In this document: positions 10,729 through 27,670 of the stretch, one piece after another
How positions within the stretch are numbered: position 1 is the first letter of the stretch
Layout of the letters: each line of letters opens with the position of its first letter
Assembly: GCA_051874735.1 (NCBI GenBank)
Contig: JBJEGD010000031.1
Location: 130,681 to 194,680 of the forward strand
Direction: 5' to 3'
Length of the DNA: 64,000 nt
Source: Candidatus Bruticola sp.
GTDB taxonomy: Bacteria; Vulcanimicrobiota; Xenobia; Xenobiales; Xenobiaceae
Program-made: the position numbers and the translations under genes
The notes under the pieces: model-generated
The model's input: the letters and a program-made list of their open reading frames with translations, nothing else
The model's database searches: none
What the model was told of the DNA's origin: nothing

Positions 10729-13700
10729 TTATAGAGACGACAAAGATACGCTGAAGTCTTTCAGCTCATAAATTATTTTGCCGTCTGTTTCTAAAATGCC
10801 GTTAGCTTTTATATAAGGATTATTCCCTTGGCCTATTTCAGTAATTTCTGCCCTTACTATAGTTTCTTGGTTCGCTTGGGTTACTTGACCTCGGTAGAGC
10901 CAGTGATGGGGGCTATCTAGGGTAATGGCTGAGAAAGTGTGGCTTTTTTGCAAATTGGGCCATTTTTTAAGAGCGATTATTTTGAGAAGCTGAATAAAAG
11001 CTTCTAATCCTAGCGATCCGGGCATAACCGGATCTTGGAAGAAGTGGGCCTTAAAGAACCACTCTTGAGGATCGATACGTTTTCGGCCTACAGCTGCTCC
11101 TAATCCTAATTTTCCTCCTTGAGGATACCAAGCATATTCATCCAGCATAAGTAGAGCTTTACCGGGTAAAGATAAAGAAGCGGTTCTATTGTCTTGATTG
11201 TCACTTGGGGTTAAAGGAGCTAGCACTGGCAGCTTTTCAAAGGGTACTTCCTGGGCAGGATACCATAAACGTTTTGAGGCGCCACGAACTCCCACCTGAT
11301 CGGCCAGAGCTTTTTCTGTAAAGAAACCAAAAGTAGTTTGTCCTTCATAAATGAGGCGTCCTTTTTGGCTCATATTCATGTCAAAATCTTGAATGATAAG
11401 GCCGCCAGCTTCTGAAGACTTAGTAAGGCGCACTCTAATGGTGACCGTTCCTGATTTAGGATGAAGTTCCTCATGCAGGATTGAGGTTCCGCCTAAATTG
11501 CGGTAGTGCAGATTTTCGCTGCTATGCTTAGAAGAACCAGCATAACTAGATACCCAACCGCATACTTGCAGAGCTATTTCGTTAAGGACACAGAAAGGCA
11601 TGCGTCCAGTATGTCCAGCTTTGAAATACCAAGCATTTTCAGGTATATCGTACTGAGCCTCTACCCAGCCTCCAGGTACGGTTTTAAGGAAAGGATGATC
11701 GGCACTGACAATGCGGCTGACAAATTGGTAAGGCGGTCCAGGCAATCTAGCTATAAATTTAGTATCAAACTCGGCGAACTCCGGTCCAAAGGCTAAAGAA
11801 GGTTTCCCTATGGCAAACTGCATAAACTGCTCTTCGTTAAATATAGCCTTTTTTATAGGATCGCCTAAGTGAACCGCTGGTGGCTGTCTGCTGCTCCAAA
11901 GTTCTTCTAACTTAGCTCCAGTGGTGCCAGTTAACTGCATGGAAATATTTTCAAAGCCTACAACTCTTTTATTATCAGCGTACATAATTGCGTCTGCAAT
12001 AACATAAGGGTGAGGATTATAGCCTATTTCCTTGATCTCTACCTGATAACGCACCGTCTTTGTTGTCTGTAGTACAGGACCGCGACATTTAAGTACGGCT
12101 TTGACTCCAATAACCGGTTCATAGGCTATCTGGTTTTTTTCTCCTACCCAGCCTAAGCGGGTTAACAGGAAACGTAGGGCGTGAGCGCAGCATTCGTACA
12201 TTAAGGTACCAGGCATAACCATATCGTCAACAAAGTGGCAAGTTAGGTACCAATCTTCAGGATGGACGTCAGCTTCAGCTATAACTTTACCCAGCCCCCA
12301 GCGTCCTCCCTGGGGATCACATTCGGGAATACGATGAATTAAGCGCAGCAAACCGGAAGGTAAGCTGATAGGTTGATGCAGTGGCAAACCGGCAAAATCC
12401 GCTCCGAAACAGGCTTCTAAATCGCCGCGGCGTAAGGCTTCAACTTGCTCAGGACTGTAGCTGCCAGGGCTGAGAGGTACTAAATATTTCATATTAGGAT
12501 CTCTGCGCCCCTGTTTAGGACGGAGACTGTCTTCAGTCAGTACTAAACCGCCGTTATTGCGGATTTCATTGTGAGTGAAGAAACCAGCACAACCGTCGCG
12601 CATAGTGAGGAAAGTTTGTCCGTTTATAGTTCCTTCATATTCGAAGAAAAATAACCAAGTATCCCCTTGGTTGATAAAACGTTTAATACGAATGTCATAA
12701 TGAATCGTTTCACCTGGCTGAGGGAGCCCGCGATGGAAAGTAACATTGGCATCTAAAAGGCGGTAGACTCTCTTGCCTTGAGCCTTAAAATCTATACCTA
12801 ACCAACTGCAGAGGAACAGGTCAGCTTGTCCCGCTTCTACTGAAATAAAGACCGGAGCACGTCCTCCATCTAGATACCACATGCCGGGAACGACGTCGTG
12901 TTCAGTTATAACACGCCCAGAGCCCAAAGAGAGAGGTTCACCTTCTACGGATATTATACGATCAACCAGCATGAGAGGTTCGGCTGGCAAGCGAACTCGC
13001 GTAGAATAATTATCAACGGGAGCGAATTTCTCTCCGAGAACATGTCCAATTTTGCCCACAGCAAATTCCAGGCAGGCTTGTCTGTCCATAAAAACTTGCT
13101 GATTGGCAGAAGCTAATGATGGCTTATTACCGCAAATATAACCGTCAGAAGCTGTAAACTCTACACCGTGCAATTTTGTTTTATAAGTAGCCTTATGGCC
13201 GGGGGACGTCTGAGGCGATACTACTCTTCCAGCGGAAGCTGCGGATGGAGCGTCTATTCTACTAAGAGAAGCTCCCTTTAAACTGTCAGGTAGAACTTCG
13301 CTATCTGTATTATGGCCAATACATTGCTGTTGATTAGCAATATCGTTTGCTTTTAAAGAGCTATGTAAAGTTTGATTAGTAAGAGCTTTAACCTGATTGG
13401 GCTGGTAAGCTAAGTCATAACAAGCCAAATTTTGAGTCAAAATACTTTGACGCTGCAGTAAATCAGCTATAGCCTTAGAGCTTTCTTTAACAAAGTCAAG
13501 CCACTTATTATGACTTTGTTGGGAGAGTTGTGCAGAAGTCAGTAAAAGTTTTTCAATATTTTCTAAAGGACTGTTAGCAATATCGATATTTTGAACTGCA
13601 GATGAAGTGACTTCATCATTAGTCAAAAGGCTTGGCAAATGAGCTTCAGCTGGAACTGCAGAAACAGAACTTAACTGATTATGTTCTATATGATTCATAG

Positions 13701-16700
13701 CTTTTTCGGTTATTTTACCATTATTATGCAAATTATCGGCCGCTTTTAAAGGTTTATGAATCGCCTGAGAAGCATCCTCTTCTGTGTTGGGCTGCTTATT
13801 AGGCAAAGAAGCAAACTCCAGTGACAACTGGGCCGCTTGGGGAGTTGATGATTTACAGCTAGCTGATTTTGTGGCTGTCGCTAAAATAGGGGGAGCGTTA
13901 TTCCGAATAATATTATTGAATTCATTCGGTTGGGCTTCTTGACAACTTAATTTAAAGCATAAAGGCGGATCAAAGGGGCGACGTCCTAAAGCAATTTTTA
14001 ATAAACGCTTTCCAACGGAGATAGTCTCTTGCTTGTCTTTAGGGAATAGACTGCTAAGATCGGGACGCAGCCCCTGACTGATAGCTCCAGCTAGCAGGCA
14101 CTCTAAAGATGATAACTCAGATTTACCTCTGTTGCTTAAACTTATGGCAAAATGAGGTTTATCAGCCAAGATATTATTAATCATGCGAGTACATGAGGCC
14201 CCCGGACCCATTTCTAAGAAAATGCGCACTCCGTCTTGCCAAGCTTGACGTATAGTTTTAGTGTAATCGAATCCGAAGCGACCGTGGGCTACAATAGAAT
14301 CGGCTATTTTTTCTGAAGTTAAATTATAAGAGCGGTGGTAATAGCCGCTATAAAAATCGATGCCTGGTGGTGGAGTACAAGGTAAATAATGCATATCCCA
14401 GTATTGTTGAGCCACAGGATCGAGGCAGTCACAATGAACGGTATCCACGCCACTAACAAAAATAGCTTTAGTTTTTAATTTAGTGCAAAGTTTACTGATA
14501 GCTTCGCGAGTGCCTCCCACGACACATTCGTTATCAGTATTAATAATAAGTAAGCGAACTTGAGAAATAGTGGCTATAGCTTCTTTTACCTGAGAAGCTG
14601 GAACGCGGATGACACCAGCCATCCATTCAAACTTGGCGCCAGAAGGAATATTCCAAGCCCTTCTAGCTGCCAGACATTTGCCTGAAAGCTGCTCTCGGAA
14701 TAAGTCGGAACCTTCCATGCGCTTGTACATAAGATCTCTTTCAGGCCAAGCTCTTAGAGCAAATAAAGCTGCCGACTCTCCTAAGCTGTAACCTATGGCC
14801 GCCTGAGGTTCTAAGCCTAAACTACGCACAGCATCTGTAGTCAGCATGGCAAAACTGACCTGGCTGAACATCATTTTATGAGTGTCGGAGGCTAACGTTT
14901 TGAAGGCGTCTCGTTGCCAATTGTCAGACCAATCTAAACGGTAAGGTTGGTTCCAACGCGCCATAAATTCGTCAGCCATATAAAGATTTTCTCGATCGAA
15001 GCGCTCCATTAACTGAGGGAAGTGCAGAGCTAATTCTCTGCCTAAACCTAAGAAATTCGCCCCTGATCCGGGATATACAAAAGCTGTCCGACCTTGCTGA
15101 GCTAAGGGGTTGGGACTGTAAAAAATGGAATGGTTAGCTAGAGGCTTGTCGGCATATTCTTCTAAATGCTTAATAGCAAGTTTCAAACGTATATGGAACT
15201 CATTCCAAGGCTCTTCAGTCGATAAATCTATGACAAAAGCCATGGCTAGCTTATGTTGCTGATTCTGTTGCTTGTGCCAATAAGAGCCTAATCTTATTAA
15301 ATTGTCGACTTCACATTGATCTTGATCAAGCAACTTTTCTGCTTCAGTTTGCAGCTGCTTCAGCTGTTGTTTTAATTGCTCAGCAGTTTCAGCATAAGAA
15401 GCAAATATTACCGAGTTAATTTTATCTAAAGTATGCTGATGAGCGTGTGAGGCAGAAGAATCCACTAACTGATCTTGTGAAGCTGTTTCAGCTACAGGAG
15501 CTTCCTCCAAGATGATAGTCGAGGTCTGGTGCGGGTAGGACGTACATATTACGGCTGCGCATCGAGAGCCGTCAGCGCGTCTGCGGAACCAGAATGAAGG
15601 CTTAGTGTGGACGCAAAAACGGGACCCTGTCCAGTCTTCTCCGTCTAAAGGCTTAATAAATCGAGGAGAAGCTGGCAAGATGTGGTGTTCTAAACTAAGA
15701 GCGGTTTTTAAAGTAGAAGCTAAAGCTGAAGCCGCTCCGCATTGGCCTATAACAGAACTTACAGAGGTGACTGATAAAGGTATATCCCCTTTATCGATAG
15801 TCCGCCTAATTTGCTGTAGGTTTTCACGATAACAGGGCTCAGTTAACAGAGAGCCGTTGCTAAATTCTAGATAACTTAGCTTCTCAGGCGCTGTACCTGC
15901 TTGAGCGCAGGCTTGTTCTAAGGCTAATTGCACAGAAGAAGGTTGAGCGGAATGGTTACCAGTTTCTGAAGCTTGGCCAAAACCTTTAAGCAAACAATAA
16001 ATATGGTCGCCGTCTCGACGAGCGTCGCTTAAACGTTTTAACACGAAACAACAGCAGCCTTCACCGTATCCTTCGGGAAGCTCGGCAAAATGGGAATGAG
16101 CCGCCCGTACGTCACCTTGCAGATCTATGGCACCAACTAACGCTAAATCTAATTTCCTATTAAGTAACGCTTGGCTGCCCAATTTTAAAGCTGTCAAGCC
16201 AGAAGATTCTTGCGATGAAACTGTAAAAGAACAGCCGCCGAACTGAAATTCGCGGGCGGCTCGGCTAGCTGCGATACTGCCGAGCGCTCCCATAGTGCGT
16301 GTTGCATCAAGAGGAGCTGAAATTTCATCTTGCAAATTCTTAAGCCAGTCTTCTTCTTGCTCTGAATTTAAATTGAGTAATTTAGCAAGTTCGTGAGCTT
16401 TCTTCTCTAAATGCCAGCGCAAAGTAAAATTAGTTGAATTTAAGTCTAGCGCAATACCTATAAAGGCAGCTGCGCGATGGCGGCGCTGGCGAAGGGGCTG
16501 TTTAGCATCAGCCATAGCTTGAGCTGCTGTGTACAAAAGCAGAGTTTGCTGAGGCAGAATATGGGGGATATCTGCCGGAGGTACGCGAAATTGGCCTGGA
16601 GTTACAGATATGTCTTTAATATAAGCTTGTTGAGTAGAAATCGGCGTATAGATACCTTGCCAGCGATCGTCAGGTAGCTCTTCTAAAGCGGAAAGGCCGT

Positions 16701-18222
16701 TAAAGACTGCGTCTTTAAATTTCTCTGTGCTATTTAAAGAACCAAAATGGCCAGCTAGGCCAATAACCGCTACAGCATCTAATTTATCTGAGTTAGCAGT
16801 TGAAAGGTTAGGGCAGGAATCTGCTGTTTTACTAGCTCTTGCTTCGGAAGGAAATGGAGCGGTGTACTCTTCTAAAATTATATGAGCGTTAATTCCGCCA
16901 AAGCCGAATCCGCTGACAGCTGCTCGGCGTGGACGTCCCTCAGGTTGGGGCCAAGGTAGTTCCTGATTTTCTATGCGGAAGCAGCTATCTGCCAAAGGTA
17001 GATTGGAACGTTGAAAATTAACTTGGGGAGTAATAATTTTATGCTGCATATTGAGCAGCACCCTAATAAGACCAGCCGCTCCGGCAGCCGTCAGCAAATG
17101 GCCGATCATAGATTTGACTGAGCGGAGCTGACAAACAGAACCTTGAGGAGCATTCTCCCAAAGGGTTTGTAGGCTATTGAATTCTATTCTGTCTCCCACT
17201 GGAGTGCCTGTGCCGTGGCACTCTATTAAATCTATATCCCAGGGGTTAAGTTTGCATACTTCATAAGCTTGGCGCAAGCTGCGCAGTTGCCCTTCGCTGG
17301 AGGGAGCAACTAAACTTCCTTCAATATCGTTGGACAGTCCAGTGCCTTTAATAACAGCATAAATTTTGTCTCCTTGGGCTTCAGCATCGGCAAGACGTTT
17401 CAAAACGACCAAACCACAGCCTTCGCCCACCATTAGACCATCGGCTTTGACGTCGAAAGGAGAGCATACTCCACTGGGAGATAGAGCTCTCAAAGCGGAA
17501 AAGCCCATCTGAGTATATAGACAGTCTGGCCGAGAAACTCCTCCGGCGATCATAGCTTCCGCTTGGCCACTGCGCAGCTCCTCACAGGCTAATTCAATAG
17601 CCACTAAAGAACTGGCGCAGGCGGCGTCTAGGGTATAGCCTCCCAAACCTAAGCCCAAAGAGTTAGCGATCAGCTGTGCCGGCAAGCCTACAGGAGAAGC
17701 GTTGATGGCCCTGACTTCAGAGCTAGCGGCGCCGTTGCTAATAAAAGATGGTTGGATAGAAAATTCAGCAGTGTTGGGATAAGTCTCCTGAAGTTTGCTG
17801 CGCAGACGTTCCGCAAAATCGCTGCCCAAAATATTTTCGCTCAGCTCTACAGTTGTATCGGTAGGAAGAGCTATAGCGGCCATGATAACTCCGGTCCGCT
17901 CTTTCTTGATAGCAGTATTTTGCACAGCTTGGCGAGCAGTATTTAAGCTTAAAACAAATACTGGATCAGTTCCGTTTGGCAGTCCCTCATCTTCCGGCGA
18001 GGGAAGGTTGTGCAGATAATAGCCGCGTGTACAGCGCAGGCCGTCCGCTTTAGGGATAGGACTCAAATGTTTGGCGTCATCTATAGGCCAGCGATTGGAA
18101 CTAGGATGTTCCGAAAGATCTTGGGCTTCTTGAAGGCGGCGCCAATATTCTTCAGCATTGTGTGCTCCGGGAAAGTTTAGTCCGATGCCGACAACGGCTA
18201 TATCTGTATTTTGTTTTGCCAT
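10729..18222 (-). CDS. PUFA synthase PfaBC/Pfa3-like fusion: KS-CLF-AT-pseudoDH-DH-pseudoDH-DH
   Basis: Active KS (DAACASS, ECHGTGT, GHLLTAAG); second KS fold lacking the Cys (SSQESSG) = CLF; AT with YPGSG and GYSLGE; FabA-type DH motifs CHFVDDMVMPGTLMYE and AHFFQDPVMPGSLGLE, each preceded by a degenerate hotdog domain. Confidence 0.9.
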   Translation of the reverse strand: MAKQNTDIAVVGIGLNFPGAHNAEEYWRRLQEAQDLSEHPSSNRWPIDDAKHLSPIPKADGLRCTRGYYLHNLPSPEDEGLPNGTDPVFVLSLNTARQAVQNTAIKKERTGVIMAAIALPTDTTVELSENILGSDFAERLRSKLQETYPNTAEFSIQPSFISNGAASSEVRAINASPVGLPAQLIANSLGLGLGGYTLDAACASSLVAIELACEELRSGQAEAMIAGGVSRPDCLYTQMGFSALRALSPSGVCSPFDVKADGLMVGEGCGLVVLKRLADAEAQGDKIYAVIKGTGLSNDIEGSLVAPSSEGQLRSLRQAYEVCKLNPWDIDLIECHGTGTPVGDRIEFNSLQTLWENAPQGSVCQLRSVKSMIGHLLTAAGAAGLIRVLLNMQHKIITPQVNFQRSNLPLADSCFRIENQELPWPQPEGRPRRAAVSGFGFGGINAHIILEEYTAPFPSEARASKTADSCPNLSTANSDKLDAVAVIGLAGHFGSLNSTEKFKDAVFNGLSALEELPDDRWQGIYTPISTQQAYIKDISVTPGQFRVPPADIPHILPQQTLLLYTAAQAMADAKQPLRQRRHRAAAFIGIALDLNSTNFTLRWHLEKKAHELAKLLNLNSEQEEDWLKNLQDEISAPLDATRTMGALGSIAASRAAREFQFGGCSFTVSSQESSGLTALKLGSQALLNRKLDLALVGAIDLQGDVRAAHSHFAELPEGYGEGCCCFVLKRLSDARRDGDHIYCLLKGFGQASETGNHSAQPSSVQLALEQACAQAGTAPEKLSYLEFSNGSLLTEPCYRENLQQIRRTIDKGDIPLSVTSVSSVIGQCGAASALASTLKTALSLEHHILPASPRFIKPLDGEDWTGSRFCVHTKPSFWFRRRADGSRCAAVICTSYPHQTSTIILEEAPVAETASQDQLVDSSASHAHQHTLDKINSVIFASYAETAEQLKQQLKQLQTEAEKLLDQDQCEVDNLIRLGSYWHKQQNQQHKLAMAFVIDLSTEEPWNEFHIRLKLAIKHLEEYADKPLANHSIFYSPNPLAQQGRTAFVYPGSGANFLGLGRELALHFPQLMERFDRENLYMADEFMARWNQPYRLDWSDNWQRDAFKTLASDTHKMMFSQVSFAMLTTDAVRSLGLEPQAAIGYSLGESAALFALRAWPERDLMYKRMEGSDLFREQLSGKCLAARRAWNIPSGAKFEWMAGVIRVPASQVKEAIATISQVRLLIINTDNECVVGGTREAISKLCTKLKTKAIFVSGVDTVHCDCLDPVAQQYWDMHYLPCTPPPGIDFYSGYYHRSYNLTSEKIADSIVAHGRFGFDYTKTIRQAWQDGVRIFLEMGPGASCTRMINNILADKPHFAISLSNRGKSELSSLECLLAGAISQGLRPDLSSLFPKDKQETISVGKRLLKIALGRRPFDPPLCFKLSCQEAQPNEFNNIIRNNAPPILATATKSASCKSSTPQAAQLSLEFASLPNKQPNTEEDASQAIHKPLKAADNLHNNGKITEKAMNHIEHNQLSSVSAVPAEAHLPSLLTNDEVTSSAVQNIDIANSPLENIEKLLLTSAQLSQQSHNKWLDFVKESSKAIADLLQRQSILTQNLACYDLAYQPNQVKALTNQTLHSSLKANDIANQQQCIGHNTDSEVLPDSLKGASLSRIDAPSAASAGRVVSPQTSPGHKATYKTKLHGVEFTASDGYICGNKPSLASANQQVFMDRQACLEFAVGKIGHVLGEKFAPVDNYSTRVRLPAEPLMLVDRIISVEGEPLSLGSGRVITEHDVVPGMWYLDGGRAPVFISVEAGQADLFLCSWLGIDFKAQGKRVYRLLDANVTFHRGLPQPGETIHYDIRIKRFINQGDTWLFFFEYEGTINGQTFLTMRDGCAGFFTHNEIRNNGGLVLTEDSLRPKQGRRDPNMKYLVPLSPGSYSPEQVEALRRGDLEACFGADFAGLPLHQPISLPSGLLRLIHRIPECDPQGGRWGLGKVIAEADVHPEDWYLTCHFVDDMVMPGTLMYECCAHALRFLLTRLGWVGEKNQIAYEPVIGVKAVLKCRGPVLQTTKTVRYQVEIKEIGYNPHPYVIADAIMYADNKRVVGFENISMQLTGTTGAKLEELWSSRQPPAVHLGDPIKKAIFNEEQFMQFAIGKPSLAFGPEFAEFDTKFIARLPGPPYQFVSRIVSADHPFLKTVPGGWVEAQYDIPENAWYFKAGHTGRMPFCVLNEIALQVCGWVSSYAGSSKHSSENLHYRNLGGTSILHEELHPKSGTVTIRVRLTKSSEAGGLIIQDFDMNMSQKGRLIYEGQTTFGFFTEKALADQVGVRGASKRLWYPAQEVPFEKLPVLAPLTPSDNQDNRTASLSLPGKALLMLDEYAWYPQGGKLGLGAAVGRKRIDPQEWFFKAHFFQDPVMPGSLGLEAFIQLLKIIALKKWPNLQKSHTFSAITLDSPHHWLYRGQVTQANQETIVRAEITEIGQGNNPYIKANGILETDGKIIYELKDFSVSLSSL

Positions 18223-18260
18223 ATTTAATAAACCCGTGTTGATAAGCTTAAAACTGTGTG

Positions 18261-21200
18261 TTAAAAACAGTTGCTGCGGAATGATTCAGCCAAGGAAGAA
18301 CTCATAATCCAATGGACGTCACGCCATTCAGCTAACACTTCGCCTTTGTTATCGGTGAGGAATATATCTCCGCGCATTTCATTAGTATCTGCTTCCTTGG
18401 GATAGAGAAGAATATGGGCCTTCTCAGGAAACTTATCTACATATTGACGATAGCTGCCACCGAACATAGGCAAAGAACACAGACCGCGCTGAGCGCCGCT
18501 CCATAACAGTCCACTTTGTAAAGCACAGTCGAGGAACAGCGGATGAGTAATAGGAGTCTCTTGGGGATGATTCATTAATTTGACGCCGCTGTCAGTCACA
18601 TCGGCAGCTAAAACATGCTGTCCGCAAGCCCTAACTTTATCTATGCCGCGCAGTTTGGGACCATGGAAAAGATATTTATTATAAGCTTCTGGCATAGTGC
18701 AAGGATAGCCGTTTTCTTCGATTGGGTTAAGACGGCTGCTTGGTTTATGAGGTAGGCCAGGCTTCAGAGCCAGTACAACTGTACCCTCTGCGCATTTGTG
18801 GGGAGTTGAATTTGGCTTGCGATGATTTATCACAAAGGAAACGCGCAGTTCATCTCTTATTGGCTCTGCTCGTCTAATAACTATATCGATTTCTGAATCG
18901 GCAATATGCTTATCTGGCTGGCCTTGCTCTCGTCCTAATGGTAAAGTAACAGGTCTCAGTACTCTGAGGTTGTCACAGCCCAAAAAGCGGTACTGAGGAA
19001 AATACTTGCGGCAAGCTTGAGCCGCCAGTTCCACCATTAAAGCGGCTGGCATAACAGAGTGACCGCCTAAAATATGATCCTCTAAAAGAGGATAATATTC
19101 TGAATTGAGAGTGCGGTTGTAAGGATCGCAACGATCAATTCCAGAACAATCATCATATGGTGCGGCGGTTTCGTCCGAAGATGCGCGATTGGGAAGCCGG
19201 ACGGGCTTTGGGCCCGTCAGCGCAAAAGGGCGCTGAGAATCGTCTCCTTTCTCTTCCTCGTTACTGTCTAGTCCCAATGATTTAGCTAAGCGGCTCACTT
19301 CCTCTGCAGGCTGCTTTTCTTGATTTTCACTAGAATTGTCTTCGCTAGGTACGTTGAAACCATCTCCCATGACGAGCTCGCAGGCCTGATCGTGACCTAA
19401 CAAAACTTCTGCCGTTAAAGCGCGTGCTCCGCGTCCTCGTTCTATAACTTCAACGCCCAATTGCTCAAATTTGCGTTTAAGACTTTCATCTACCATACCG
19501 CCTTCCCACGGTCCCCAGCCCATGGCTTCAAAACGGGTTTGAGGATAGAGAGCACTGGCTGTATAAGTAAATTTGTTCATTACTTCATTAGCCATAGCGT
19601 AATCTGCTTGACCAGGGCGGCCGAACCGCGCAGAAACAGAGGAAAAAGTAACCACAAACTGCAGCGGGTCATCTTGTAAGGCTTGCATAAAGTTATAAAG
19701 GCCGTTTACTTTAGTGTCGAAGACCATACTAAATTGGTCATCAGTTTTATCACATATGTATCTATCGGCCAAAACGCCGGCTCCGTGTATAAAGCCTGTG
19801 ATGGGGCCTAAGCGCTTGCGAATATCAGCGACAATTTGATTAATTAAGCTGTCATCGCGCACATCAAGGGAAATATACTCCGCCTGTGAGCCGCAGGCTC
19901 GGATATCGTTGATGTTTTGGGAAATCTCCCGATTAACTAAAATGCGGCGACATTCACTCTCTAGAAGCTTAGGAGAGATACTCTTACCGCTCTGTTTAGC
20001 CTGTTGGTAAAGTAAAGCTTTTAAATCGCGGGCCGTTTGGGCTGATTTAGTTTGAGTCCATTCAGGTACAGGAATAGGGGATCTGCCTATTAAAACAAAG
20101 TTGAACTTACCATGTTTAGCTAAAAGTTTAGCACAATCGGCGGTTACGCCTCTAGCTCCGCCCGTTACTATAATTGTCGAACCTAGCTTAGGTAAATTCT
20201 CCCCGTTAAAGCCAAGTTTCTCTTCACGCAATACTGGAATGCGGCGTACGCCACGTCGATCTATGCCTATTTCGTTACTGCCATCAATTAGCAATTCCGC
20301 AATAATCTCAGCTGCTATACGATCGGGATTGTCATCGACGCAAAAATCGAAAGAGCGGCTGCGCAGATTCGGATATTCTTGAGCTACTACTTTGGCTAAT
20401 CCGTGCAGTCCAGCTTCAATAGGATTGCTGGCTTCATCAAAAGTTCCGAAGCGTCCGTCCATGCGGGTGACTGTTAAAAACAGGCCAGGAACCTGATTTA
20501 TCTGTTTCCAAATTTGGCACTGCTGGCGTACCAGCTTGAAGCAGTCTTTGAGGGCTTCTTCTGCTGCACTGCGCTTAAAGAAAAAGTCGCCTACTTCATA
20601 GAGGGGGAAGCTAGGCATAATTACTATTAAACCAGCGAAGTGGTTAGCCATACTTAAATGCTGGTCGGTTAGAGGTTGATCTTTACTTATAAGGCAAGCT
20701 TGCAAACCGAGCTGCTCCATGGCGGAACAGAGAGCCGGAGCAATATAACCGTCATCAGTGATGACATAAAGCCCTTGAGCGTCAATATCAACAGTTTTGT
20801 TAGGTGCCGGCGATTCTTCATAGTAAAGTTTACGCCGTTTGAGCATTTGGCCATTAGGAGCCAAAGCTTCGGCCAAAGCTTCGGCAGTGTTTTTAACTGC
20901 TGAATTTGAGGGCGGATTTTCATCATTAGCCGCTGCAGCGGCTGCGGCGGACGAGTGGTCTTCAGCCACTTGTTCCGCGGCAGCCGGATGGTCGCCTTCA
21001 GTCTGATTACTGCTGCTATTTAAAGCAGCAGAAGTTTCTTTAGGAACCTGTTCCGCAGCTAATGGTAAATTAGACTCAGAACTAGCTTCATTTATGGCCT
21101 CGGTTCCTTTATCGTTATTTTTTTTTTCTTTCCCGCCGTTTGTTGGCTGGGGGCCATTTTCCGGAGGGGTAGGATGATTATTAGGGCTCAGACGGTTGAG

Positions 21201-24200
21201 AATATCGCGCACTGTGTGCAGAGAGCCTATCTCATCGGGCCCTATAGCTGAAGCCGCCGGAATGATCTTTTGGACAGCAGCTAAGATTTCGACCCTTTTT
21301 ATAGAGTCGATACCTAAATCGTTTTCCAAATCCATATCCAGATTTAGCGTTTCTAATGGATAGCCAGTCATATCGGCTACAACCTTCAGTACGGTATCTT
21401 CATTGCTAAATGCTGAGTCGGCAGCTATTTTAGCAACAGTAACCTCTGAAGTTACCTGAGAGTTATTACCCAAACGGTTGATAATATCGCGCAGAGTGTG
21501 TAAAGAACCGATTTCCTCAGGACTGATGGTAGCAGCTGAAGGCAGAGATTTCTGGACAGTAGCCAGAATTTCTACCCTTTTAATAGAGTCGATGCCCAAG
21601 TCGCTCTCTAGATCCATATCGGTATTTAGTGTCTCTACCGGATAGCCAGTCATATCAGATACAATCTTAATGATAACTTCTTCCGCAGGAACAGACTTGG
21701 CGCCATTTTGTTCTTGGATAGCGTCATTCGGCTGAGCACCTGTTGTTTTGTTAGAAGTGAGTCTATCTAAAATTTGACGCAAAGTGTGCAGAGAACCGAT
21801 TTCGTCTGGGCTGATGGCTGTTGTGCCGGACAGCTGTTTTTGGATGGCAGCTAGAATTTCTACTCTTTTAATCGAGTCGATACCCAAGTCATTTTCCAAA
21901 TCCATATCGAGGTTTAAAGTTTCAACAGGATAACCTGTCGTTTCAGCCACTACACTCAGAAGTAGATTTTCGGGATCTTGAACTTTAGCGTCATTCTGAG
22001 CAGAAGCCTCGGCGATAACCTTCTTTTCGGAAACACTGCTCTGGGAAGCGTTTTCGGCAAGGCTGTTAGATTTTAAATTATTCAGCTTATCGGCAATTTG
22101 GCGAAGAGTTTGCAAAGAGCCTATTTCATCGGGAGCTATAACTTTAGCTTGAGGGAATCTTTTCTGTACGGCTGCTATAATTTCAACCCGTTTAATAGAG
22201 TCAATGCCCAGATCGGTCTCTAAATTCATGTCTAAGTTGATCATATCCGCCGGATAACCGGTCATTTCGGCTACTGTGCCGATAATAGCGGCAGTCAAAT
22301 CGCCTGCCTGCTCAGTCTGGGGGGCGGCAGGCATTTTCAATTTCATTTCAGTTACAGCAGTAGCTGGAGCTTCTGCGTTTACTTCTGAAATAGGTTTAGC
22401 TAAAGGCTTGGCTGCTGAAAAGGCAGACATAGCTGAAGATATAGGCACTGAAACTAAGGGCTCAGGCTCAGCAGGGGGTTGGAAATAGGGACGATGCTCC
22501 GCCAAAGGAATGCTGGCCGTCTGGACAGTAGCCAAGTTAGAAACGGTTGTTAAATTGGCGCTATCTTGGCTGAAAGGTTGTGAACACACCTTACTGATAG
22601 GTTCTGCTCCTAAGCTTAATTGCGCTAAAGTTTGCTGAGAGGCAATAATACTCTGCAGAGTCTGTTGAATCTGCACTTGACTATCTAAAAAGCGCAAATG
22701 AGCATTGGCTGTTTGCTGTTGCAGAGTTTGCATAGCTTCCAGGCCAATTTGTATGGTGCGAAAAGCCTGACTCAGCATAGAACTATCAGTTTTTAAAGTC
22801 GTGCTAGTACCAAAAGAGCTGAGATGAGTATTTTGAACGGCAGCTGCTTTTAGGTCTGTCGCCGAAGCTGGAGAAGTGTAACTTTGCGATGTAGGCTCAG
22901 TTAAAGGAGAGGATACGAATATAGGTTGGGGCTGAGACGCGTAGGAAGATTGAACCGGTTTAGTAACTTCATCGGTTGTTGATGGCGTACAGCGAGGGGC
23001 GGCCTGAACTGCGGACAATCCCGGGGTGGAGACTTCCTTGGGGGTAGGAGCCTCTTTATCAATGTGAATGTCGTCAGGCTTTTGGGCAGCCGGAACTGAA
23101 TCAAAAGCGACTTCTCCCAATTCTACAGGAGCAGACGGATTGACCACTGGATTATCGCTGATAAATTTGAGGGGCTGATAGCCTTCCACCGGTTGAATGG
23201 GATCACAGCTAGGAGCTGGAGCATGTTTGCCAGGAGTACGGTAGTTAGCTCCGCAGATAGGCACAATCATGCGTTTATGGCGTGGTTCGCTGATATTTTC
23301 TTCCCATTTAGCAAGATCTACTGGGTAGCCTAAAGCGGACAGTTGGGCTAAAACTTGGGCTAAGCAGACTAACTCTCCGCCTCCGCGGCGTCCGTCGGTA
23401 GCGAGCATGTAGTGAGCTTTACTTCCCAAAATCTTTTTTACTAAACCGGTTAAAACCGTTTTCGGTCCGACTTCAATAAAAGTGCGGAAGCCATCAGCGT
23501 ACATGTTTTCAATAATATCAATGAAACGCACCGAGCTGACCAACTGTTCTCCCAGAGTCCGGCGGAGCTGTTCAATATCGTCTGTATAAACTTTACCAGT
23601 GACATCAGCATAGACTGGAATCTTAGGAGCTTGCAGTTTAATTTTGCTCAAAGCCTCGCAGAAAGGCTCTTTGGCAGTAGCCATAAGAGAACTATGGAAA
23701 GCGGCCGATACTTGAAGACGCTTAGCAGTAATGCGGCGCGATTTACAAATTTCTTCTGCCTGGCTGACGGCTTCTTTAGAGCCGGAGATAACACCCTGAG
23801 AGGGATGATTGCGGTTAGCCAGTACCAGATCTCCACCAACTTCTTGTACTATTTCTTCAATGGTTGAAAGAGGAGCGGAAACTGCTGACATAGCGCCACG
23901 TCCTCCGTCTCCCTTAGCCATAAGGGAACCGCGCAGAGCTGAGAGGGCGAAGAGATCCGATTGAGTGTAAACACCGGCTTGTTGAAGGGCTACCAGCTCT
24001 CCGTAAGAGTGGCCGGCCATAGCTTGAGGTAACACTCCAAAGCCGCGCAGAATAGAGGCTGCTGCTGATTCGGCAGCTCCTAAGCAAGGCTGGGCTGCGC
24101 GGGTATCAGTGATAGCCTTAGTCTGGGCTGTCTCTTCTCCTTCAGCAAAAGTTTTTATGGGGAAGATAAGCTGAGCTGGATCCTGGCTATCCTCCAAAGT

Positions 24201-26021
24201 GTTATGAGCTGTTTCTAAAGCCGCCAACGCTTCAGGGAAAATACTGAAAAATTCGCGATCCATACCGACATACTGGCTGCCTTGACCGGGGAAGAGGAAG
24301 GCTATTTTGCCAGGTTCAGAAGAGGCGTCGCCGTAGAAAGAACCACTGGGAAGCGAGCCAGACGCATCTTTATTTTGCTCCAAAGCCTCGGCTAATTCGT
24401 TAAGTTTAGACGAGTAATCATTAGGTCCACAGACCAGTAGGGTACGAACCGCTGCATCTGCCCGGAAATTACGGCGCGACAAATTGGCCTTATAGGCGGC
24501 TTCATAAAATTCGCAAGCGGCGGCGCTGCGGATATCAGCAATTAAAGAACTGCGCTCTGCAGAACTAAAAGCCCAAATCTGCACAGAACCGTCCCAGGCT
24601 GGAACGGTGCGCTGCCGATTGTATTCTTCTAAAACAACGTGGAAATTGCTGCCTCCAAAGCCAAAAGACGAGACGCCGCTGCGTCTGACTTCACCTTTCT
24701 TGACAACCCAAGGTTTAGTTTGAGTGCTTATATAGAAAGGAGTCTCTTCCAGACCTAATTTAGGATTGGGACGGCTAACGTGTAAAGTCGGCAGAATAAC
24801 TTTGTGGAAAAGAGATAAGCTGGCTTTGCAGAGACTGGCGGCTCCAGCCGAAGCTTTAGTATGACCAATTTGTGATTTGACAGTACCTAAGGCGCAGCTG
24901 CTCTTTTTATCTACGTTTTTAAAAACGCTCTTCAAAGCGTTAAATTCCACGACATCGCCTACTTTTGTACCGGTGCCGTGAGCCTCAATTAGACCTATGT
25001 CAGCGGGGGTAATTCCCGCTTCTTTATAGGCTCTTTCTAAAGCTAAACTTTGACCAGGAGCACTGGGAGCGTAAATAGCTCCGGAATTTCCGTCTGAAGA
25101 AGCCCCCAGTCCTTTTATGACTGCATAAATTCGATCTCCGTCGCGTTCGGCGTCAGCTAAACGCTTAAGTACTAAAACACCTATGCCTTCTCCTAAAAGA
25201 GTACCGTCGCAATCTTCGGAAAAAGGAGCTATATGTCCGGAGTCAGACAGAGCTGGAGTCTTGCTGAAGCAAGTGAACATAAATACATCATTGAAGGTAT
25301 CTGTGCCGCCAGTTAGCACCATATCGGCATTACCTGAGCGAAGTTCAGAGAGAGCCAGATGGACCGCTGCCAGAGAACTAGCACAGGCTGCATCGACGGC
25401 GCAGTTAGCTCCGTGTAAGTCAAGGCGATTAGCTATGCGCCCTGCTACTACGTTGCCCAGCAAGCCTGGAAATGAATTTTCCTGCCAAGATACATAAGAA
25501 TCAGCAATACTGGCAACTACTTTTTCAGCTGTAGCTTTATCAACTCCGGCTTCAGCTAAAGCCTTGCGCCAGCGAGGATGGCCTAAGCGAGCTCCCAGAG
25601 GAATAACCATTTCCAAGGCGCCCGTTACGCCTAAAATAACGCTGGTCGTATCCTTAGGAACGGCTTTGCCCCCCTGACCGTAACCAGCATCTTCCAAAGC
25701 GGCCTTGGCGCCAGCTAAACCGAGAAGTTGAGAAGTATCTGTAGCTTCTAAAACATTGGGCGGAATGTTAAATTCTGTGGGATCGAAGGGGTAAGGTTCC
25801 AAGAATCCGCCTACTTTGGCGTAACAGCGATCGGGACTGTTGTGATCGCCGTCGTACAAATCGTTTACCGACCAATGAGTAGCAGGAACCGGGCCTATAC
25901 AATCAGTTCCGGTGCGCAAAATACGCCAAAAACTCTGGCGGCTGTCGGCTTTAGGAAAAAGGCACCCCATGCCGATAATAGCAATGGGCAGATTATGATT
26001 ATTCTTGTAATTAGAAGACAC
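18261..26021 (-). CDS. pfaA: PUFA synthase PfaA/Pfa2-like: KS-MAT-ACPx4-KR-DH
   Basis: ENSFPGLLGNVVAGRIANR, DAACASS, EAHGTGT; MAT GQGSQ, GHSYG, AFHS; four LGIDSIKRVEI ACPs; KR TGGARGVT, HGAGVLAD, DYAMANE; PKS-type DH HILGGHSVMP and DCALQ; GTG start at 26021 with SD AGGAG. Confidence 0.92.
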   Translation of the reverse strand: MSSNYKNNHNLPIAIIGMGCLFPKADSRQSFWRILRTGTDCIGPVPATHWSVNDLYDGDHNSPDRCYAKVGGFLEPYPFDPTEFNIPPNVLEATDTSQLLGLAGAKAALEDAGYGQGGKAVPKDTTSVILGVTGALEMVIPLGARLGHPRWRKALAEAGVDKATAEKVVASIADSYVSWQENSFPGLLGNVVAGRIANRLDLHGANCAVDAACASSLAAVHLALSELRSGNADMVLTGGTDTFNDVFMFTCFSKTPALSDSGHIAPFSEDCDGTLLGEGIGVLVLKRLADAERDGDRIYAVIKGLGASSDGNSGAIYAPSAPGQSLALERAYKEAGITPADIGLIEAHGTGTKVGDVVEFNALKSVFKNVDKKSSCALGTVKSQIGHTKASAGAASLCKASLSLFHKVILPTLHVSRPNPKLGLEETPFYISTQTKPWVVKKGEVRRSGVSSFGFGGSNFHVVLEEYNRQRTVPAWDGSVQIWAFSSAERSSLIADIRSAAACEFYEAAYKANLSRRNFRADAAVRTLLVCGPNDYSSKLNELAEALEQNKDASGSLPSGSFYGDASSEPGKIAFLFPGQGSQYVGMDREFFSIFPEALAALETAHNTLEDSQDPAQLIFPIKTFAEGEETAQTKAITDTRAAQPCLGAAESAAASILRGFGVLPQAMAGHSYGELVALQQAGVYTQSDLFALSALRGSLMAKGDGGRGAMSAVSAPLSTIEEIVQEVGGDLVLANRNHPSQGVISGSKEAVSQAEEICKSRRITAKRLQVSAAFHSSLMATAKEPFCEALSKIKLQAPKIPVYADVTGKVYTDDIEQLRRTLGEQLVSSVRFIDIIENMYADGFRTFIEVGPKTVLTGLVKKILGSKAHYMLATDGRRGGGELVCLAQVLAQLSALGYPVDLAKWEENISEPRHKRMIVPICGANYRTPGKHAPAPSCDPIQPVEGYQPLKFISDNPVVNPSAPVELGEVAFDSVPAAQKPDDIHIDKEAPTPKEVSTPGLSAVQAAPRCTPSTTDEVTKPVQSSYASQPQPIFVSSPLTEPTSQSYTSPASATDLKAAAVQNTHLSSFGTSTTLKTDSSMLSQAFRTIQIGLEAMQTLQQQTANAHLRFLDSQVQIQQTLQSIIASQQTLAQLSLGAEPISKVCSQPFSQDSANLTTVSNLATVQTASIPLAEHRPYFQPPAEPEPLVSVPISSAMSAFSAAKPLAKPISEVNAEAPATAVTEMKLKMPAAPQTEQAGDLTAAIIGTVAEMTGYPADMINLDMNLETDLGIDSIKRVEIIAAVQKRFPQAKVIAPDEIGSLQTLRQIADKLNNLKSNSLAENASQSSVSEKKVIAEASAQNDAKVQDPENLLLSVVAETTGYPVETLNLDMDLENDLGIDSIKRVEILAAIQKQLSGTTAISPDEIGSLHTLRQILDRLTSNKTTGAQPNDAIQEQNGAKSVPAEEVIIKIVSDMTGYPVETLNTDMDLESDLGIDSIKRVEILATVQKSLPSAATISPEEIGSLHTLRDIINRLGNNSQVTSEVTVAKIAADSAFSNEDTVLKVVADMTGYPLETLNLDMDLENDLGIDSIKRVEILAAVQKIIPAASAIGPDEIGSLHTVRDILNRLSPNNHPTPPENGPQPTNGGKEKKNNDKGTEAINEASSESNLPLAAEQVPKETSAALNSSSNQTEGDHPAAAEQVAEDHSSAAAAAAANDENPPSNSAVKNTAEALAEALAPNGQMLKRRKLYYEESPAPNKTVDIDAQGLYVITDDGYIAPALCSAMEQLGLQACLISKDQPLTDQHLSMANHFAGLIVIMPSFPLYEVGDFFFKRSAAEEALKDCFKLVRQQCQIWKQINQVPGLFLTVTRMDGRFGTFDEASNPIEAGLHGLAKVVAQEYPNLRSRSFDFCVDDNPDRIAAEIIAELLIDGSNEIGIDRRGVRRIPVLREEKLGFNGENLPKLGSTIIVTGGARGVTADCAKLLAKHGKFNFVLIGRSPIPVPEWTQTKSAQTARDLKALLYQQAKQSGKSISPKLLESECRRILVNREISQNINDIRACGSQAEYISLDVRDDSLINQIVADIRKRLGPITGFIHGAGVLADRYICDKTDDQFSMVFDTKVNGLYNFMQALQDDPLQFVVTFSSVSARFGRPGQADYAMANEVMNKFTYTASALYPQTRFEAMGWGPWEGGMVDESLKRKFEQLGVEVIERGRGARALTAEVLLGHDQACELVMGDGFNVPSEDNSSENQEKQPAEEVSRLAKSLGLDSNEEEKGDDSQRPFALTGPKPVRLPNRASSDETAAPYDDCSGIDRCDPYNRTLNSEYYPLLEDHILGGHSVMPAALMVELAAQACRKYFPQYRFLGCDNLRVLRPVTLPLGREQGQPDKHIADSEIDIVIRRAEPIRDELRVSFVINHRKPNSTPHKCAEGTVVLALKPGLPHKPSSRLNPIEENGYPCTMPEAYNKYLFHGPKLRGIDKVRACGQHVLAADVTDSGVKLMNHPQETPITHPLFLDCALQSGLLWSGAQRGLCSLPMFGGSYRQYVDKFPEKAHILLYPKEADTNEMRGDIFLTDNKGEVLAEWRDVHWIMSSSLAESFRSNCF
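21190..22300 (-). repeat. Four tandem ACP domain repeats within pfaA
   Basis: Repeated TGYP..LN.DM.LE.DLGIDSIKRVEI.A..QK...I.P.EIGSL.T unit, four copies (approximate bounds). Confidence 0.85.
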
Positions 26022-27670
26022 TATAACGACTCCTGTAACAGCGAGGCTAATTCTTGGATAGGAAGGGGAGCAAAACGCTTCCACTGGGCTGGGAGCTCGA
26101 CTCCCTGATTGCAAAGAAGCGAGGTTCTGGTCAGGATGCAAGCCCCAGTCATAATATTAAGTGCTGCCAAATCTGCGTGGCGCTCTTTTACGTTTTCCAT
26201 AAATGTTCCTTTGCACCACTCATTAAAGCTGCCCATAGATGGACCGCACCAGATTTGGTAATCGGCTCGGCGATCGGGAAGACCGGCATTGGCCCAGCGT
26301 GAAGCTTGCCCCAAGTATGATCTAAAAACTAACGCCATCTTGTGCTTAGGGTCTAGTTCTGCTTTAGTAATTTGCCGCGGGTCTCGTTTAGCAAAGAAAG
26401 CTTTCGTATTTTGCCAAGCTTCTTCAAAGCTGGAGCGCAGCATAGTCTTTTCTATTTGCTCCCTAGTTGAAGGCGGCACTTCGCTAAATGAATTGTAAGT
26501 GCGGTAAACTTCATAGAGACGTTTCGCCCTTACTGGGAACATCGTTCCCCATTTGAGCACTTGGACATTTACACCCATTTCGAACATGTCGGCAGCTGGG
26601 GCCATAGTGACATCGGCCGGAGAGGCCTTAGCCAGCATCTCCCGTACTACCTGACTGGAACCAGATTCCTGACAGGCCTGATTTATAGAACCAGTCATTA
26701 CGTAGGCTGCTCCCATAGCAAAAGCGGCGGCTGCCGCCTGAGGAGAGGCAATACCCCCGGCTGCGCCTACTGGCACTTGCCATCCCCATTTTTCTTGCAT
26801 TCTGTCTCGTAAATCGAGCATAGATGGAAGTAGTCCGAAAGCGGGACGATTATCTGTGTGTCCTCCGCTGTCAGCCTCAGCAGTTATAGCTGAGGCGGGG
26901 GGCAGCAGATAGGCTGCGGCTGCTTCTTCTTGGGTCAGCAGTCCCTGATCAGCTAAAGCAGAAATCATTTCTTGAGGTGGAGGAGCCAGCAGTTTCGCGG
27001 CTACTTCTAAGCGTGATACTTTTGCAAAAACATGATGCGGAGCGCTGATTGTGCCGTCGGGCAAACGCTTTATCCCGCTGTATCGGTAATGAAGCAGCGC
27101 CGGAGTTAAGCCTAAAAAGGCTGAAGCTTCAATACAACTGACTTTATTGTCTATAAAAAGCTGAGCAGTTTCTTTTTCCAGTTGCTGATCAGAAGGACTG
27201 TGAATTAAATTGAAACCATGCGGCAGAGAGCCAAGTTTTTGTTTGAGAGAATGAATGTGAGCTTCTGCTTCTTTTAAACTGAGTCCGGCAGAGCCGAAAA
27301 AGCCCATCATGCCAGCTTTAGCCATAGCTTCAACTAAATTCTCGGAGGCTATGCCGTTAGCCATAGAACCACTTAGACAGGCATAGCGCAGTGAATAAGT
27401 GCGGCGGAATGATTCTTGGCCCAGTTCACTGGGAGGCAGTGCTGGAGCTAAGGCTAATAAAGGCAGGCTTCCTGCGGCAAATGAAGCAGGAAACTGGCAT
27501 ATCCCGTCTTCGAAGAGGGTAAAGGGCAGTTCTTGATCTTTCCATATCGAAGGGGAGGCAACTGCGAAAACAGGTTGTTTCAAATTGCGCAGCACAGCAA
27601 CTGGGTCTGGGCGTTTGGCAGTCGTCTGGGGAGTCCAGCTGCCCGTAACTTTTATGCAGGAATTTGCCAT
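26021..27670 (-). CDS. pfaD: PfaD-family FMN-dependent enoyl reductase
   Basis: SMANGIAS, IEASAF, AEADSGGHTDNR, MAPAADMFEMGV, YQIWCGPSMG. Confidence 0.93.
   Translation of the reverse strand: MANSCIKVTGSWTPQTTAKRPDPVAVLRNLKQPVFAVASPSIWKDQELPFTLFEDGICQFPASFAAGSLPLLALAPALPPSELGQESFRRTYSLRYACLSGSMANGIASENLVEAMAKAGMMGFFGSAGLSLKEAEAHIHSLKQKLGSLPHGFNLIHSPSDQQLEKETAQLFIDNKVSCIEASAFLGLTPALLHYRYSGIKRLPDGTISAPHHVFAKVSRLEVAAKLLAPPPQEMISALADQGLLTQEEAAAAYLLPPASAITAEADSGGHTDNRPAFGLLPSMLDLRDRMQEKWGWQVPVGAAGGIASPQAAAAAFAMGAAYVMTGSINQACQESGSSQVVREMLAKASPADVTMAPAADMFEMGVNVQVLKWGTMFPVRAKRLYEVYRTYNSFSEVPPSTREQIEKTMLRSSFEEAWQNTKAFFAKRDPRQITKAELDPKHKMALVFRSYLGQASRWANAGLPDRRADYQIWCGPSMGSFNEWCKGTFMENVKERHADLAALNIMTGACILTRTSLLCNQGVELPAQWKRFAPLPIQELASLLQESL

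Follow-up and report, generated by a model that had tools for sequence, protein, structure and literature searches.

A Pfa-type lipid synthase in the gut bacterium Candidatus Bruticola and the lineage-wide absence of FabD

Why does a gut bacterium with a reduced genome maintain a large synthase for a secondary lipid? The question is raised by a stretch of 64,000 nucleotides (G000:C31:130681-194680; hereafter the window) from the assembly of Candidatus Bruticola sp. (2.47 Mb, 42 contigs, 92% complete), in which positions 10729-27670 are filled by three co-oriented open reading frames (ORFs) on the minus strand, namely pfaD, pfaA and a fused pfaB/C. The host, represented by a metagenome-assembled genome (MAG) from the gut, belongs to the family Xenobiaceae (phylum Vulcanimicrobiota/Eremiobacterota, class Xenobia). 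A model that had only the letters and a list of ORFs (hereafter the sequence-only reading) had proposed a diderm, Terrabacteria-type organism, and the classification agrees with it. We compared the host genome with a sample of 41 near relatives and with an evenly drawn sample of 201 genomes from the whole phylum. The explanation that we favor, with a probability of about 0.6 for the whole, is that the locus encodes a working Pfa synthase with the enoyl reductase (ER) gene first, that the synthase is coupled to the hydrocarbon-forming Ole enzymes, and that PfaA's MAT domain stands in for FabD, the malonyl transacylase of the fatty-acid synthase of type II (FAS II).

Searches with Pfam and NCBIfam profiles confirmed the domain order given by the sequence-only reading, which is ER for the first protein, KS-MAT-4ACP-KR-DH for the second and KS-CLF-AT-DH'-DH-DH'-DH for the third (CLF, chain-length factor; DH', pseudo-DH). 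The ORF layout and the domain calls bore out its claim that the ER gene comes first and that PfaB and PfaC are fused, and its description of a complete megasynthase with intact catalytic motifs held for the motifs checked in alignments. The longest pfaA ORF (18261-26141) begins with TTG and overlaps pfaD by 120 bases. A GTG at 26021 overlaps the pfaD stop by 1 base (TAGTG) and has AGGAG 8 nt upstream, and the pfaA homologue in the Ca. Bruticola sp. locus L010 begins in the same way. The GTG is the most likely start, giving a pfaA of 18261-26021 and a protein of 2586 aa; the residue numbers given below for the KS, the ACP serines and the DH of PfaA refer to the long ORF. The features of the cluster are as follows.

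26021..27670, minus strand: pfaD, FMN-type enoyl reductase (ER), 549 aa (TIGR02814 pfaD_fam)
18261..26021, minus strand: pfaA, KS-MAT-ACPx4-KR-DH with a DH of polyketide synthase (PKS) type, 2586 aa (TIGR02813, Pfam)
24777..25988, minus strand: PfaA KS domain (PF00109 and PF02801, residues 52-455 of the long ORF; Cys-His-His)
23418..24299, minus strand: PfaA MAT domain (TIGR00128 fabD, 203 bits; GHSYG, Arg, AAFHS)
21192..22313, minus strand: four tandem ACP domains (four PP-binding; LGIDS serines at residues 1315, 1423, 1519 and 1613)
19503..20177, minus strand: PfaA KR domain (PF08659, 118 bits; YAMAN motif)
18288..19118, minus strand: PfaA PKS-type DH domain (PF21089 and PF14765; HxxxGxxxxP at residue 2356)
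10729..18222, minus strand: fused pfaB/C, KS-CLF-AT-linker-DH'-DH-DH'-DH, 2497 aa, no AGPAT (Pfam and NCBIfam profiles, alignments)
17014..18207, minus strand: PfaC KS domain, active type (DAACASS, HGTGT, GH)
15373..16785, minus strand: chain-length-factor (inactive KS) domain (KS alignment)
14140..15120, minus strand: PfaB-type AT domain (TIGR02816, PF00698, GYSLG)
10738..12999, minus strand: two FabA-type DH/isomerase domains, each after a pseudo-DH (four TIGR01749 stretches, C31:141418-143679)

PfaD scored 587.5 bits with TIGR02814 pfaD_fam (cut-off 449), covering profile positions 3-443 of 444, and PfaA scored 1471 bits with TIGR02813 (cut-off 1010), with Pfam calls for KS, Acyl_transf_1, four PP-binding domains, KR and PS-DH. 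For the fused PfaB/C, Pfam gave two KS-type stretches. The KS domains of PfaA and PfaC both retain Cys-His-His (DAACASS, HGTGT and GH), and the CLF carries Glu in place of the Cys, lacks the first His and has Gln for the second. The best solved relative of the KS-CLF region is PDB 6RIW 'ORF10' (residues 7-713, E 1.9e-100), which we take to be the Moritella PfaC KS-CLF didomain. The PfaB-type AT scored 82.9 bits with TIGR02816, under the cut-off of 144, and matched PF00698 weakly (25.5 bits), with GYSLG present. The four FabA-like stretches scored 28.9, 77.3, 30.6 and 59.8 bits, corresponding to DH'-DH-DH'-DH, and the two FabA-type DH domains carry the catalytic His motifs HFVDDMVMPG and HFFQDPVMPG. 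AGPAT (PF01553) was not found in PfaB/C, a protein that ends at residue 2497 and whose last FabA domain reaches residue 2487. The only PF01648 match in the genome is a 251-aa HetI/Sfp-like phosphopantetheinyl transferase (PPTase), encoded directly downstream of fabI (C26, L039:2995-4521, minus strand), and no AcpS-type enzyme was found in the genome. As judged from their domains and motifs, the three genes almost certainly encode a functional Pfa-type, that is, iterative secondary lipid, synthase.

The genome that encodes this synthase showed no stand-alone fabD. TIGR00128 fabD gave only three matches, the PfaA MAT (203 bits, the best) and two pieces of the PfaC AT; a genome search with PF00698 Acyl_transf_1 returned only the PfaA MAT and the PfaC AT; and tblastn with the stand-alone FabD of two relatives returned only Pfa domains, the PfaA MAT being 37% identical to the FabD of G040. 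A stand-alone fabD was likewise not found in the nine congeners (9/9). At the canonical site (C13, L038:5430-8288) the order is dfr-yceD-rpmF-fabG-acpP, and rpmF is followed by fabG without plsX, fabH or fabD in between; the same site reads dfr-x-fabD-fabG-acpP in the relative G013 and fabH-fabD-fabG-acpP in G040. The retained type II set comprises FabF beside rnc (623 bits), FabG (341 bits) and AcpP (102 bits), both over the cut-off, FabI, a FabZ after lpxC and a second FabZ-like gene (L028).

Across the phylum, FabD was counted as a match at E<=1e-64, a threshold that excludes the PfaA MAT (best E ~1e-62); the totals take in two unpublished genomes (G127 and G177), both FabD-positive and neither among the PfaD matches. 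FabD was missing in 34 of the 201 genomes. Thirty of these 34 are all the sampled members of the genera g1 (10, including our own), g2 (2) and g4 (2) and of the family f3 (16), and all 30 are PfaD-positive; the remaining four are G027 (65% complete) and three genomes of the families f15 and f20. FabD was thus absent in 30/49 PfaD-positive versus 4/152 PfaD-negative genomes. The FabD-less genomes of the genus (10/10) are 88-98% complete, and among those of f3 (16/16) one is 99% complete in 20 contigs. In the PfaD tree the FabD-positive genus g5 is basal in the family f1, and f2 and f4 also retain FabD, which suggests at least two separate losses of fabD. The new element here is that fabD is lacking across the lineage and that only the PfaA MAT is a candidate to replace it; the open-licence literature and bioRxiv yielded nothing on natural fabD loss in holders of Pfa, although absence there is weak evidence.

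Can the PfaA MAT do the work of FabD? It carries all the FabD catalytic motifs checked (GHSYG, Arg and AAFHS). Allemann & Allen 2021 reported that the MAT of PfaA can replace FabD, on the basis of fabD mutants of Photobacterium profundum SS9 and the synthetic lethality of fabD and pfaA, and that E. coli fabD::Kan is rescued by cloned pfa operons, though not at 37 °C. In other holders of Pfa, they speculated, FabD might be dispensable; they described no natural loss. Since ATs of the PfaB type act as terminal acyltransferases on long chains and differ in specificity from the PfaA AT (Lofeudo 2026), and no other FabD-like domain was found, the PfaA MAT is the only candidate in this genome. We consider it slightly better than an even bet that the PfaA MAT replaces FabD, charging both its own ACPs and free AcpP. 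The wider proposition, that in Bruticola and at least 30 sampled genomes of the Xenobia lineage the PfaA MAT has permanently taken over the job of FabD and a secondary megasynthase has become essential to primary fatty-acid synthesis, has in our judgment even odds.

Other steps of fatty-acid synthesis are also unusual in these genomes. Canonical FabH was not found in any of the 19 genomes of the family f1, and most of them encode a protein of 380-390 aa resembling ketoacyl-ACP synthase III (KAS III). The Bruticola copy has 383 aa (C16, L024:1462-2613, minus strand), scores below the cut-off of the fabH models, and is kept, as a divergent KAS III, in 8 of the 9 congeners. Biotin carboxylase (AccC) was not found in our genome or in the 14 sampled relatives of g1-g4 (0/15 at E<=1e-60 versus 26/26 in the rest). 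The genome does encode a stand-alone MmdA-like carboxyltransferase (L060:7062-8663, minus strand; 730 bits, below the cut-off of 999), and, some 20 kb outside the window, a gene for an OAD-beta sodium-pump subunit adjoins one for a biotinyl protein (G000:C31:215067-216921). Speculatively, malonyl-CoA might be made by a transcarboxylase-like route.

If the synthase works, what does it make? On contig C5, unlinked to pfa, lies an oleA-oleB-oleC-oleD operon (G000:C5:41292-45956; L040:7293-11957, minus strand); its products are, from oleA to oleD, a protein with the thiolase fold, an alpha/beta hydrolase resembling haloalkane dehalogenases, an AMP-binding enzyme and a 3-beta-HSD-type reductase. 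The sequence-only reading had noticed neither this operon nor the lack of fabD. A HIT-family gene is located upstream of this operon, and a PlsC-type acyltransferase gene (L040:13523-14587) lies near it. The OleA-like thiolase-fold protein scored 390 bits with NF006720 (cut-off 285) and aligned end to end with the solved chains 3FK5, 3ROW and 3S21 (E ~1e-72), all presumably Xanthomonas OleA; FabH chains scored at most 75 bits. The four-gene A-B-C-D make-up is the canonical ole composition (Allemann 2019). OleA homologues were found in 36 of the 41 relatives and in 45 of the 201 phylum genomes, 42 of these 45 being PfaD-positive as well. G069, from a different family of the phylum, has pfaD-pfaA-pfaC-oleA-oleB-oleC-oleD as a single block of co-oriented genes, with proteins 38-50% identical to those of Bruticola. 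In Shewanella, OleA takes a 16:4 acyl chain off the Pfa ACPs and OleBCD finish the 31:9 hydrocarbon (Allemann 2019). Given the ole operon, the co-occurrence of Ole and Pfa across the phylum, their contiguity in G069 and the Shewanella precedent, a long polyunsaturated hydrocarbon is the likely end product, with or without polyunsaturated fatty acid (PUFA), and the genome context argues that Ole probably uses the product of the Pfa synthase.

The distribution of the cluster bears on its age. PfaD was above the cut-off in 37 of the 41 relatives (9/9 in the genus), and a match at E<=0.001 was present in 24/24 high-quality genomes. In the phylum sample, 49 of the 201 genomes were PfaD-positive, concentrated in the order of the host and a few other families; the largest family of the phylum had PfaD in only 1 of its 114 genomes. 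In-frame stops were absent from all PfaD matches in both samples. In the PfaD tree, f1-f4 form one clade (support 87/89), as do f1 (97/96) and our sequence with that of Bruticola (100/99), and the families of the host stand apart from Sorangium, Paenibacillus and a Planctomycetota MAG, which together with Ruminiclostridium were the outside-group PfaD sequences obtained. The closest PfaD is that of Ca. Bruticola sp. L010 (90% identity), the only near-identical public locus, and the nearest named PfaD outside Eremiobacterota is that of Sorangium (49-50%). The first 741 residues of PfaB/C are 82% identical to L010. The ratios of nonsynonymous to synonymous substitution rates (dN/dS) against L010 were 0.05 for pfaD, 0.085 for pfaA and 0.08 for pfaC (first 737 codons), figures that are rough because dS exceeds 1, near saturation. 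The GC content of the cluster is 46.5% and that of the genome 43.4%. A contiguous D-A-C order was seen in six of the nine relatives' loci examined (G005, G015, G013, G028, L010 and G069). The cluster is split in some lineages, as in G021 (C2) and G049 (C21), where pfaD and pfaA adjoin and no pfaC homologue lies next within the stretch examined; the locus of G161 is cut by the contig end.

The sequence-only reading had described the flanks as free of integrases and insertion sequences and had called the locus resident. The flanking genes are as it described them, with SSB, L9, DnaB, DUF4127, a porin and a protein of the AIRS family that resembles SelD; integrase and transposase families had no match among the 37 ORFs scanned around the cluster, and the breadth of PfaD in the relatives, together with a PfaD tree that recovers the families of the host, supports residence. 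Decay of the locus in relatives, which that reading had named as counting against it, was not seen, with no stops in the PfaD matches and dN/dS below 0.1. These results indicate that the cluster is resident, old and vertically inherited in the Xenobia lineage and is under strong purifying selection.

To which kind of Pfa system does it belong? The proposed likeness to the myxobacterial pfa1-pfa2-pfa3 holds for the gene order with ER first, the fused pfaB/C and the AT in mid-protein, but fails at the C-terminal AGPAT, which is absent here and which on Pfa3 is the chief hallmark of the myxobacterial type (Yoshida 2016). Compared with Type L (Aetherobacter, Sorangium), the Bruticola cluster shares the ER-first order, an AT located, like that of Aetherobacter, midway along the third protein, and the 49-50% PfaD identity to Sorangium, whereas it lacks the AGPAT and its PfaD clade is separate from Sorangium. 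Type I clusters, which have the pfaB/C fusion and occur in Geobacter, Desulfuromonas, Pelobacter and Gemmata, are tied to obligate anaerobes and ole genes (Shulse & Allen 2011). Geobacter bemidjiensis has a tandem pfaD-A-B-C-oleABCD-pfaE and makes hentriacontanonaene, C31:9 (Yoshida 2016; Shulse & Allen 2011), and the other pfa/ole products of Geobacter are described as largely unknown (Yoshida 2016). With the Type I clusters of Geobacter and Gemmata our cluster has in common the ER gene in first place, the fused pfaB/C, ole genes, an anaerobic lifestyle and the lack of AGPAT; it differs in that ole and the PPTase gene are unlinked and on other contigs, the latter beside fabI, and in that fabD is lacking. 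Assigned by layout alone, it fits Type I at least as well as the myxobacterial type.

The gammaproteobacterial pfaABCDE and oleABCD systems (Shewanella and Photobacterium, making eicosapentaenoic or docosahexaenoic acid (EPA/DHA) and the 31:9 hydrocarbon) have an equal domain set, and a diversion of the Pfa intermediate by OleA like theirs is proposed for Bruticola too, but their order is A-B-C-D with a separate PfaB, and their FAS II is complete, fabD included (Shulse & Allen 2011). The fabD mutants of P. profundum SS9 resemble what we propose, with the PfaA MAT as sole malonyl transacylase and FAS II still running, as has been shown there and would hold in Bruticola; they differ in being laboratory mutants of a deep-sea psychrophile, whereas Bruticola is a gut anaerobe, and the loss in its lineage arose in nature and is fixed in entire genera and a family. 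Within the phylum, Ca. Eudoremicrobiaceae have a PUFA-synthase-like cluster that is conserved in the family, co-localised with oleBCD and constitutively expressed (Paoli 2022 supplement). That cluster is of the PUFA type with ole genes, as here, but it comes from a marine lineage with large genomes and occupies one supplementary paragraph without domain analysis, in a file that does not mention fabD. The sequence-only reading knew of no characterised PUFA or secondary lipid from the host lineage; no product has been characterised, yet because of the PUFA/ole cluster in Ca. Eudoremicrobiaceae the lineage is less unprecedented than that reading held. For Vulcanimicrobium alpinus, the sole cultured member of the phylum, iso-C14 fatty acids are described, and polyunsaturated lipids and hydrocarbons go unmentioned in the accessible text. 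The cluster therefore belongs to a known kind, a Type I-like Pfa with Ole, and it is the host lineage that is new; the open-licence literature and bioRxiv contained nothing on Pfa in Bruticola or Xenobia, an absence that is again weak evidence.

If the Bruticola synthase works as characterised Pfa synthases do, its four ACPs would be primed by the genome's only PPTase, of Sfp/HetI type, the PfaA MAT would load malonyl units, and chain extension would fall to the two KS domains with the CLF. The pattern of cis double bonds would be set by KR, the PKS-type DH, both FabA-type DH/isomerases and the PfaD ER, and the PfaB-type AT would off-load the product. The genome context suggests two further steps. 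OleABCD may take a Pfa-bound polyenoyl intermediate and condense it head to head, the end product then being a polyunsaturated hydrocarbon of great chain length and of the C31:9 kind, perhaps with PUFA in membrane lipids as well. The PfaA MAT may also load malonyl onto the free AcpP of FAS II, since the genome has FabF, FabG, FabZ, FabI and AcpP but no FabD. Service to FAS II would make the secondary synthase indispensable and would account for the survival of a cluster of 17 kb in a gut genome reduced to 2.4 Mb.

Several other explanations have to be weighed against this one. The PfaA MAT may serve the Pfa ACPs only, with malonyl-AcpP supplied by a non-homologous transacylase, by self-malonylation of the ACP or by a gene in the unassembled 8%, or with scavenged fatty acids dominating. 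Such an arrangement would be consistent with the E. coli fabD(Ts) suppressors, which arose by an unknown mechanism, and with the failure of pfa to complement fabD::Kan at 37 °C (both Allemann & Allen 2021), as well as with the exogenous fatty acids on offer in the gut and a genome that is 92% complete. We nevertheless find it doubtful, in view of the uniform absence of fabD from the genus and f3, the retention of FabF, FabG, FabZ, FabI and AcpP when FabF needs malonyl-ACP, and a PfaA MAT with all the FabD catalytic motifs and 37% identity to a relative's FabD. Another alternative makes Pfa the primary fatty-acid synthase of the cell and leaves the remaining Fab enzymes to the hydroxy-acyl chains of lipid A only. 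Canonical FabH, FabD and PlsX are indeed gone from the usual rpmF-plsX-fabH-fabD-fabG-acpP site, and such a role has been proposed for the Pfa-like synthases of Renibacterium and Desulfobacterium, which have an incomplete FAS II (Shulse & Allen 2011). But FabF, FabG, two copies of FabZ, FabI, AcpP and the genus-conserved 383-aa KAS III amount to a full elongation cycle from which malonyl transfer alone is missing, and family f3 retains canonical FabH and AccC and is without FabD only, so that we rate this alternative as very improbable.

As to the product, the synthase could instead make a (poly)unsaturated fatty acid for membrane phospholipids, with Ole acting on other acyl chains or being unrelated. 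In an anaerobe without a FabA/FabB pair or a desaturase, unsaturated acyl chains would come by way of Pfa: weak FabZ similarity aside, the genome contains nothing FabA-like beyond the two FabA-type DH/isomerase domains, the FA_desaturase family had no match in it, the PlsC-type acyltransferase gene is close to the ole operon, and Aetherobacter synthases with the AT in mid-Pfa3 make EPA/DHA (Yoshida 2016). This reading is compatible with that of a hydrocarbon. As a rival to it we consider it unlikely, because OleA-positive genomes are PfaD-positive in 42 of 45 cases, pfa and ole are contiguous in G069, the second FabZ-like gene (L028) could supply unsaturation as other FabZ paralogues do, and the Geobacter cluster of like layout yields C31:9, even if the other pfa/ole products of Geobacter are largely unknown (Yoshida 2016). 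That the cluster is decaying, or was recently acquired by horizontal transfer from myxobacteria or some other maker of PUFA, is hardly credible. The higher GC content of the cluster and Sorangium as the nearest named outside PfaD are what such a history would offer, but the cluster spans genus, family, order and class, the branching of the PfaD tree follows family lines, with Sorangium, Paenibacillus and Planctomycetota placed separately, and the matches are free of stops, with dN/dS below 0.1 and no mobile-element genes beside the cluster. On the tree, the breadth in relatives and dN/dS we rejected a recent transfer from myxobacteria.

Other observations weigh against the explanation that we favor. 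Nineteen PfaD-positive genomes keep FabD, so Pfa alone does not bring about the loss of fabD. Family f3 has many other PKS AT domains, and there the PfaA MAT is not the sole candidate. The temperature at which pfa complementation failed in E. coli, 37 °C, is that of the mammalian gut (Allemann & Allen 2021). The assembly is 92% complete, yet none of the 10 genomes sampled from the genus has fabD. The source of malonyl-CoA in the genus is unclear because no AccC was found. On the side of Ole, the operon is on another contig than pfa, and it could be independent of pfa because OleA of other bacteria uses products of type II synthases. Three genomes are OleA-positive and PfaD-negative (G017, 72% complete; G027, 65%; and G109), and seven are PfaD-positive without an OleA match (G014, G032, G036, G037, G048, G055 and G161); of these ten exceptions, five are 65-78% complete. 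The counts of co-occurrence overstate the support because kin are not independent. The Type I assignment is based on the layout, and the product proposed here is a prediction from the genes. A search for sequencing runs listed one DNA run with a low share of words (0.08), and no RNA run was among those listed.

An intact and selected Pfa synthase together with an Ole pathway is thus present in animal-gut members of a barely studied phylum, and the prediction is that bacteria of the Bruticola type make polyunsaturated hydrocarbons or PUFA in the gut. If FabD has indeed been replaced, the synthetic lethality of fabD and pfaA in Photobacterium would gain its first counterpart in nature. The repeated natural loss of fabD in Pfa lineages would offer a testable case of a secondary synthase wired into essential lipid metabolism, a wiring so far known only in engineered or selected laboratory strains, and it bears on the assumed essentiality of FabD, on the sharing of carriers between FAS II and PKS-type systems and on the use of MAT domains in engineering.

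Some features in and beyond the window remain to be described. One gene next to pfaD is a possible associate of the cluster.

27966..28811, plus strand: divergent 281-aa acidic protein, no family

It had no match in Pfam or NCBIfam, and its best score in the protein atlas was 0.78, below the usable level. In L010 (88%), G015 (39%) and G013 (30%) the position immediately upstream of pfaD is occupied by a homologue, which is not the case in G005 or G028. On the other side of the cluster, downstream of pfaC, a Gly/Pro/His-rich ORF of 273 aa (9677-10498, minus strand) was dropped as a member: it matched no family, tblastn turned up no homologue at any of the relatives' loci that were searched, and it is possibly not a genuine gene. 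Elsewhere in the genome, a 388-aa ORF (L060:13143-14309, minus strand) is weakly similar to class A beta-lactamases (113 bits, with a family cut-off of 200), and a DpgA-like type III polyketide synthase (G000:C35, L026:488-2337; 409 bits, cut-off 425) is preceded by an enoyl-CoA hydratase gene. Within the window, the plus-strand gene at 42826-44055 encodes a fusion of a response-regulator receiver domain with a Ser/Thr protein kinase domain and adjoins a HAMP histidine kinase gene at 40460-42721.

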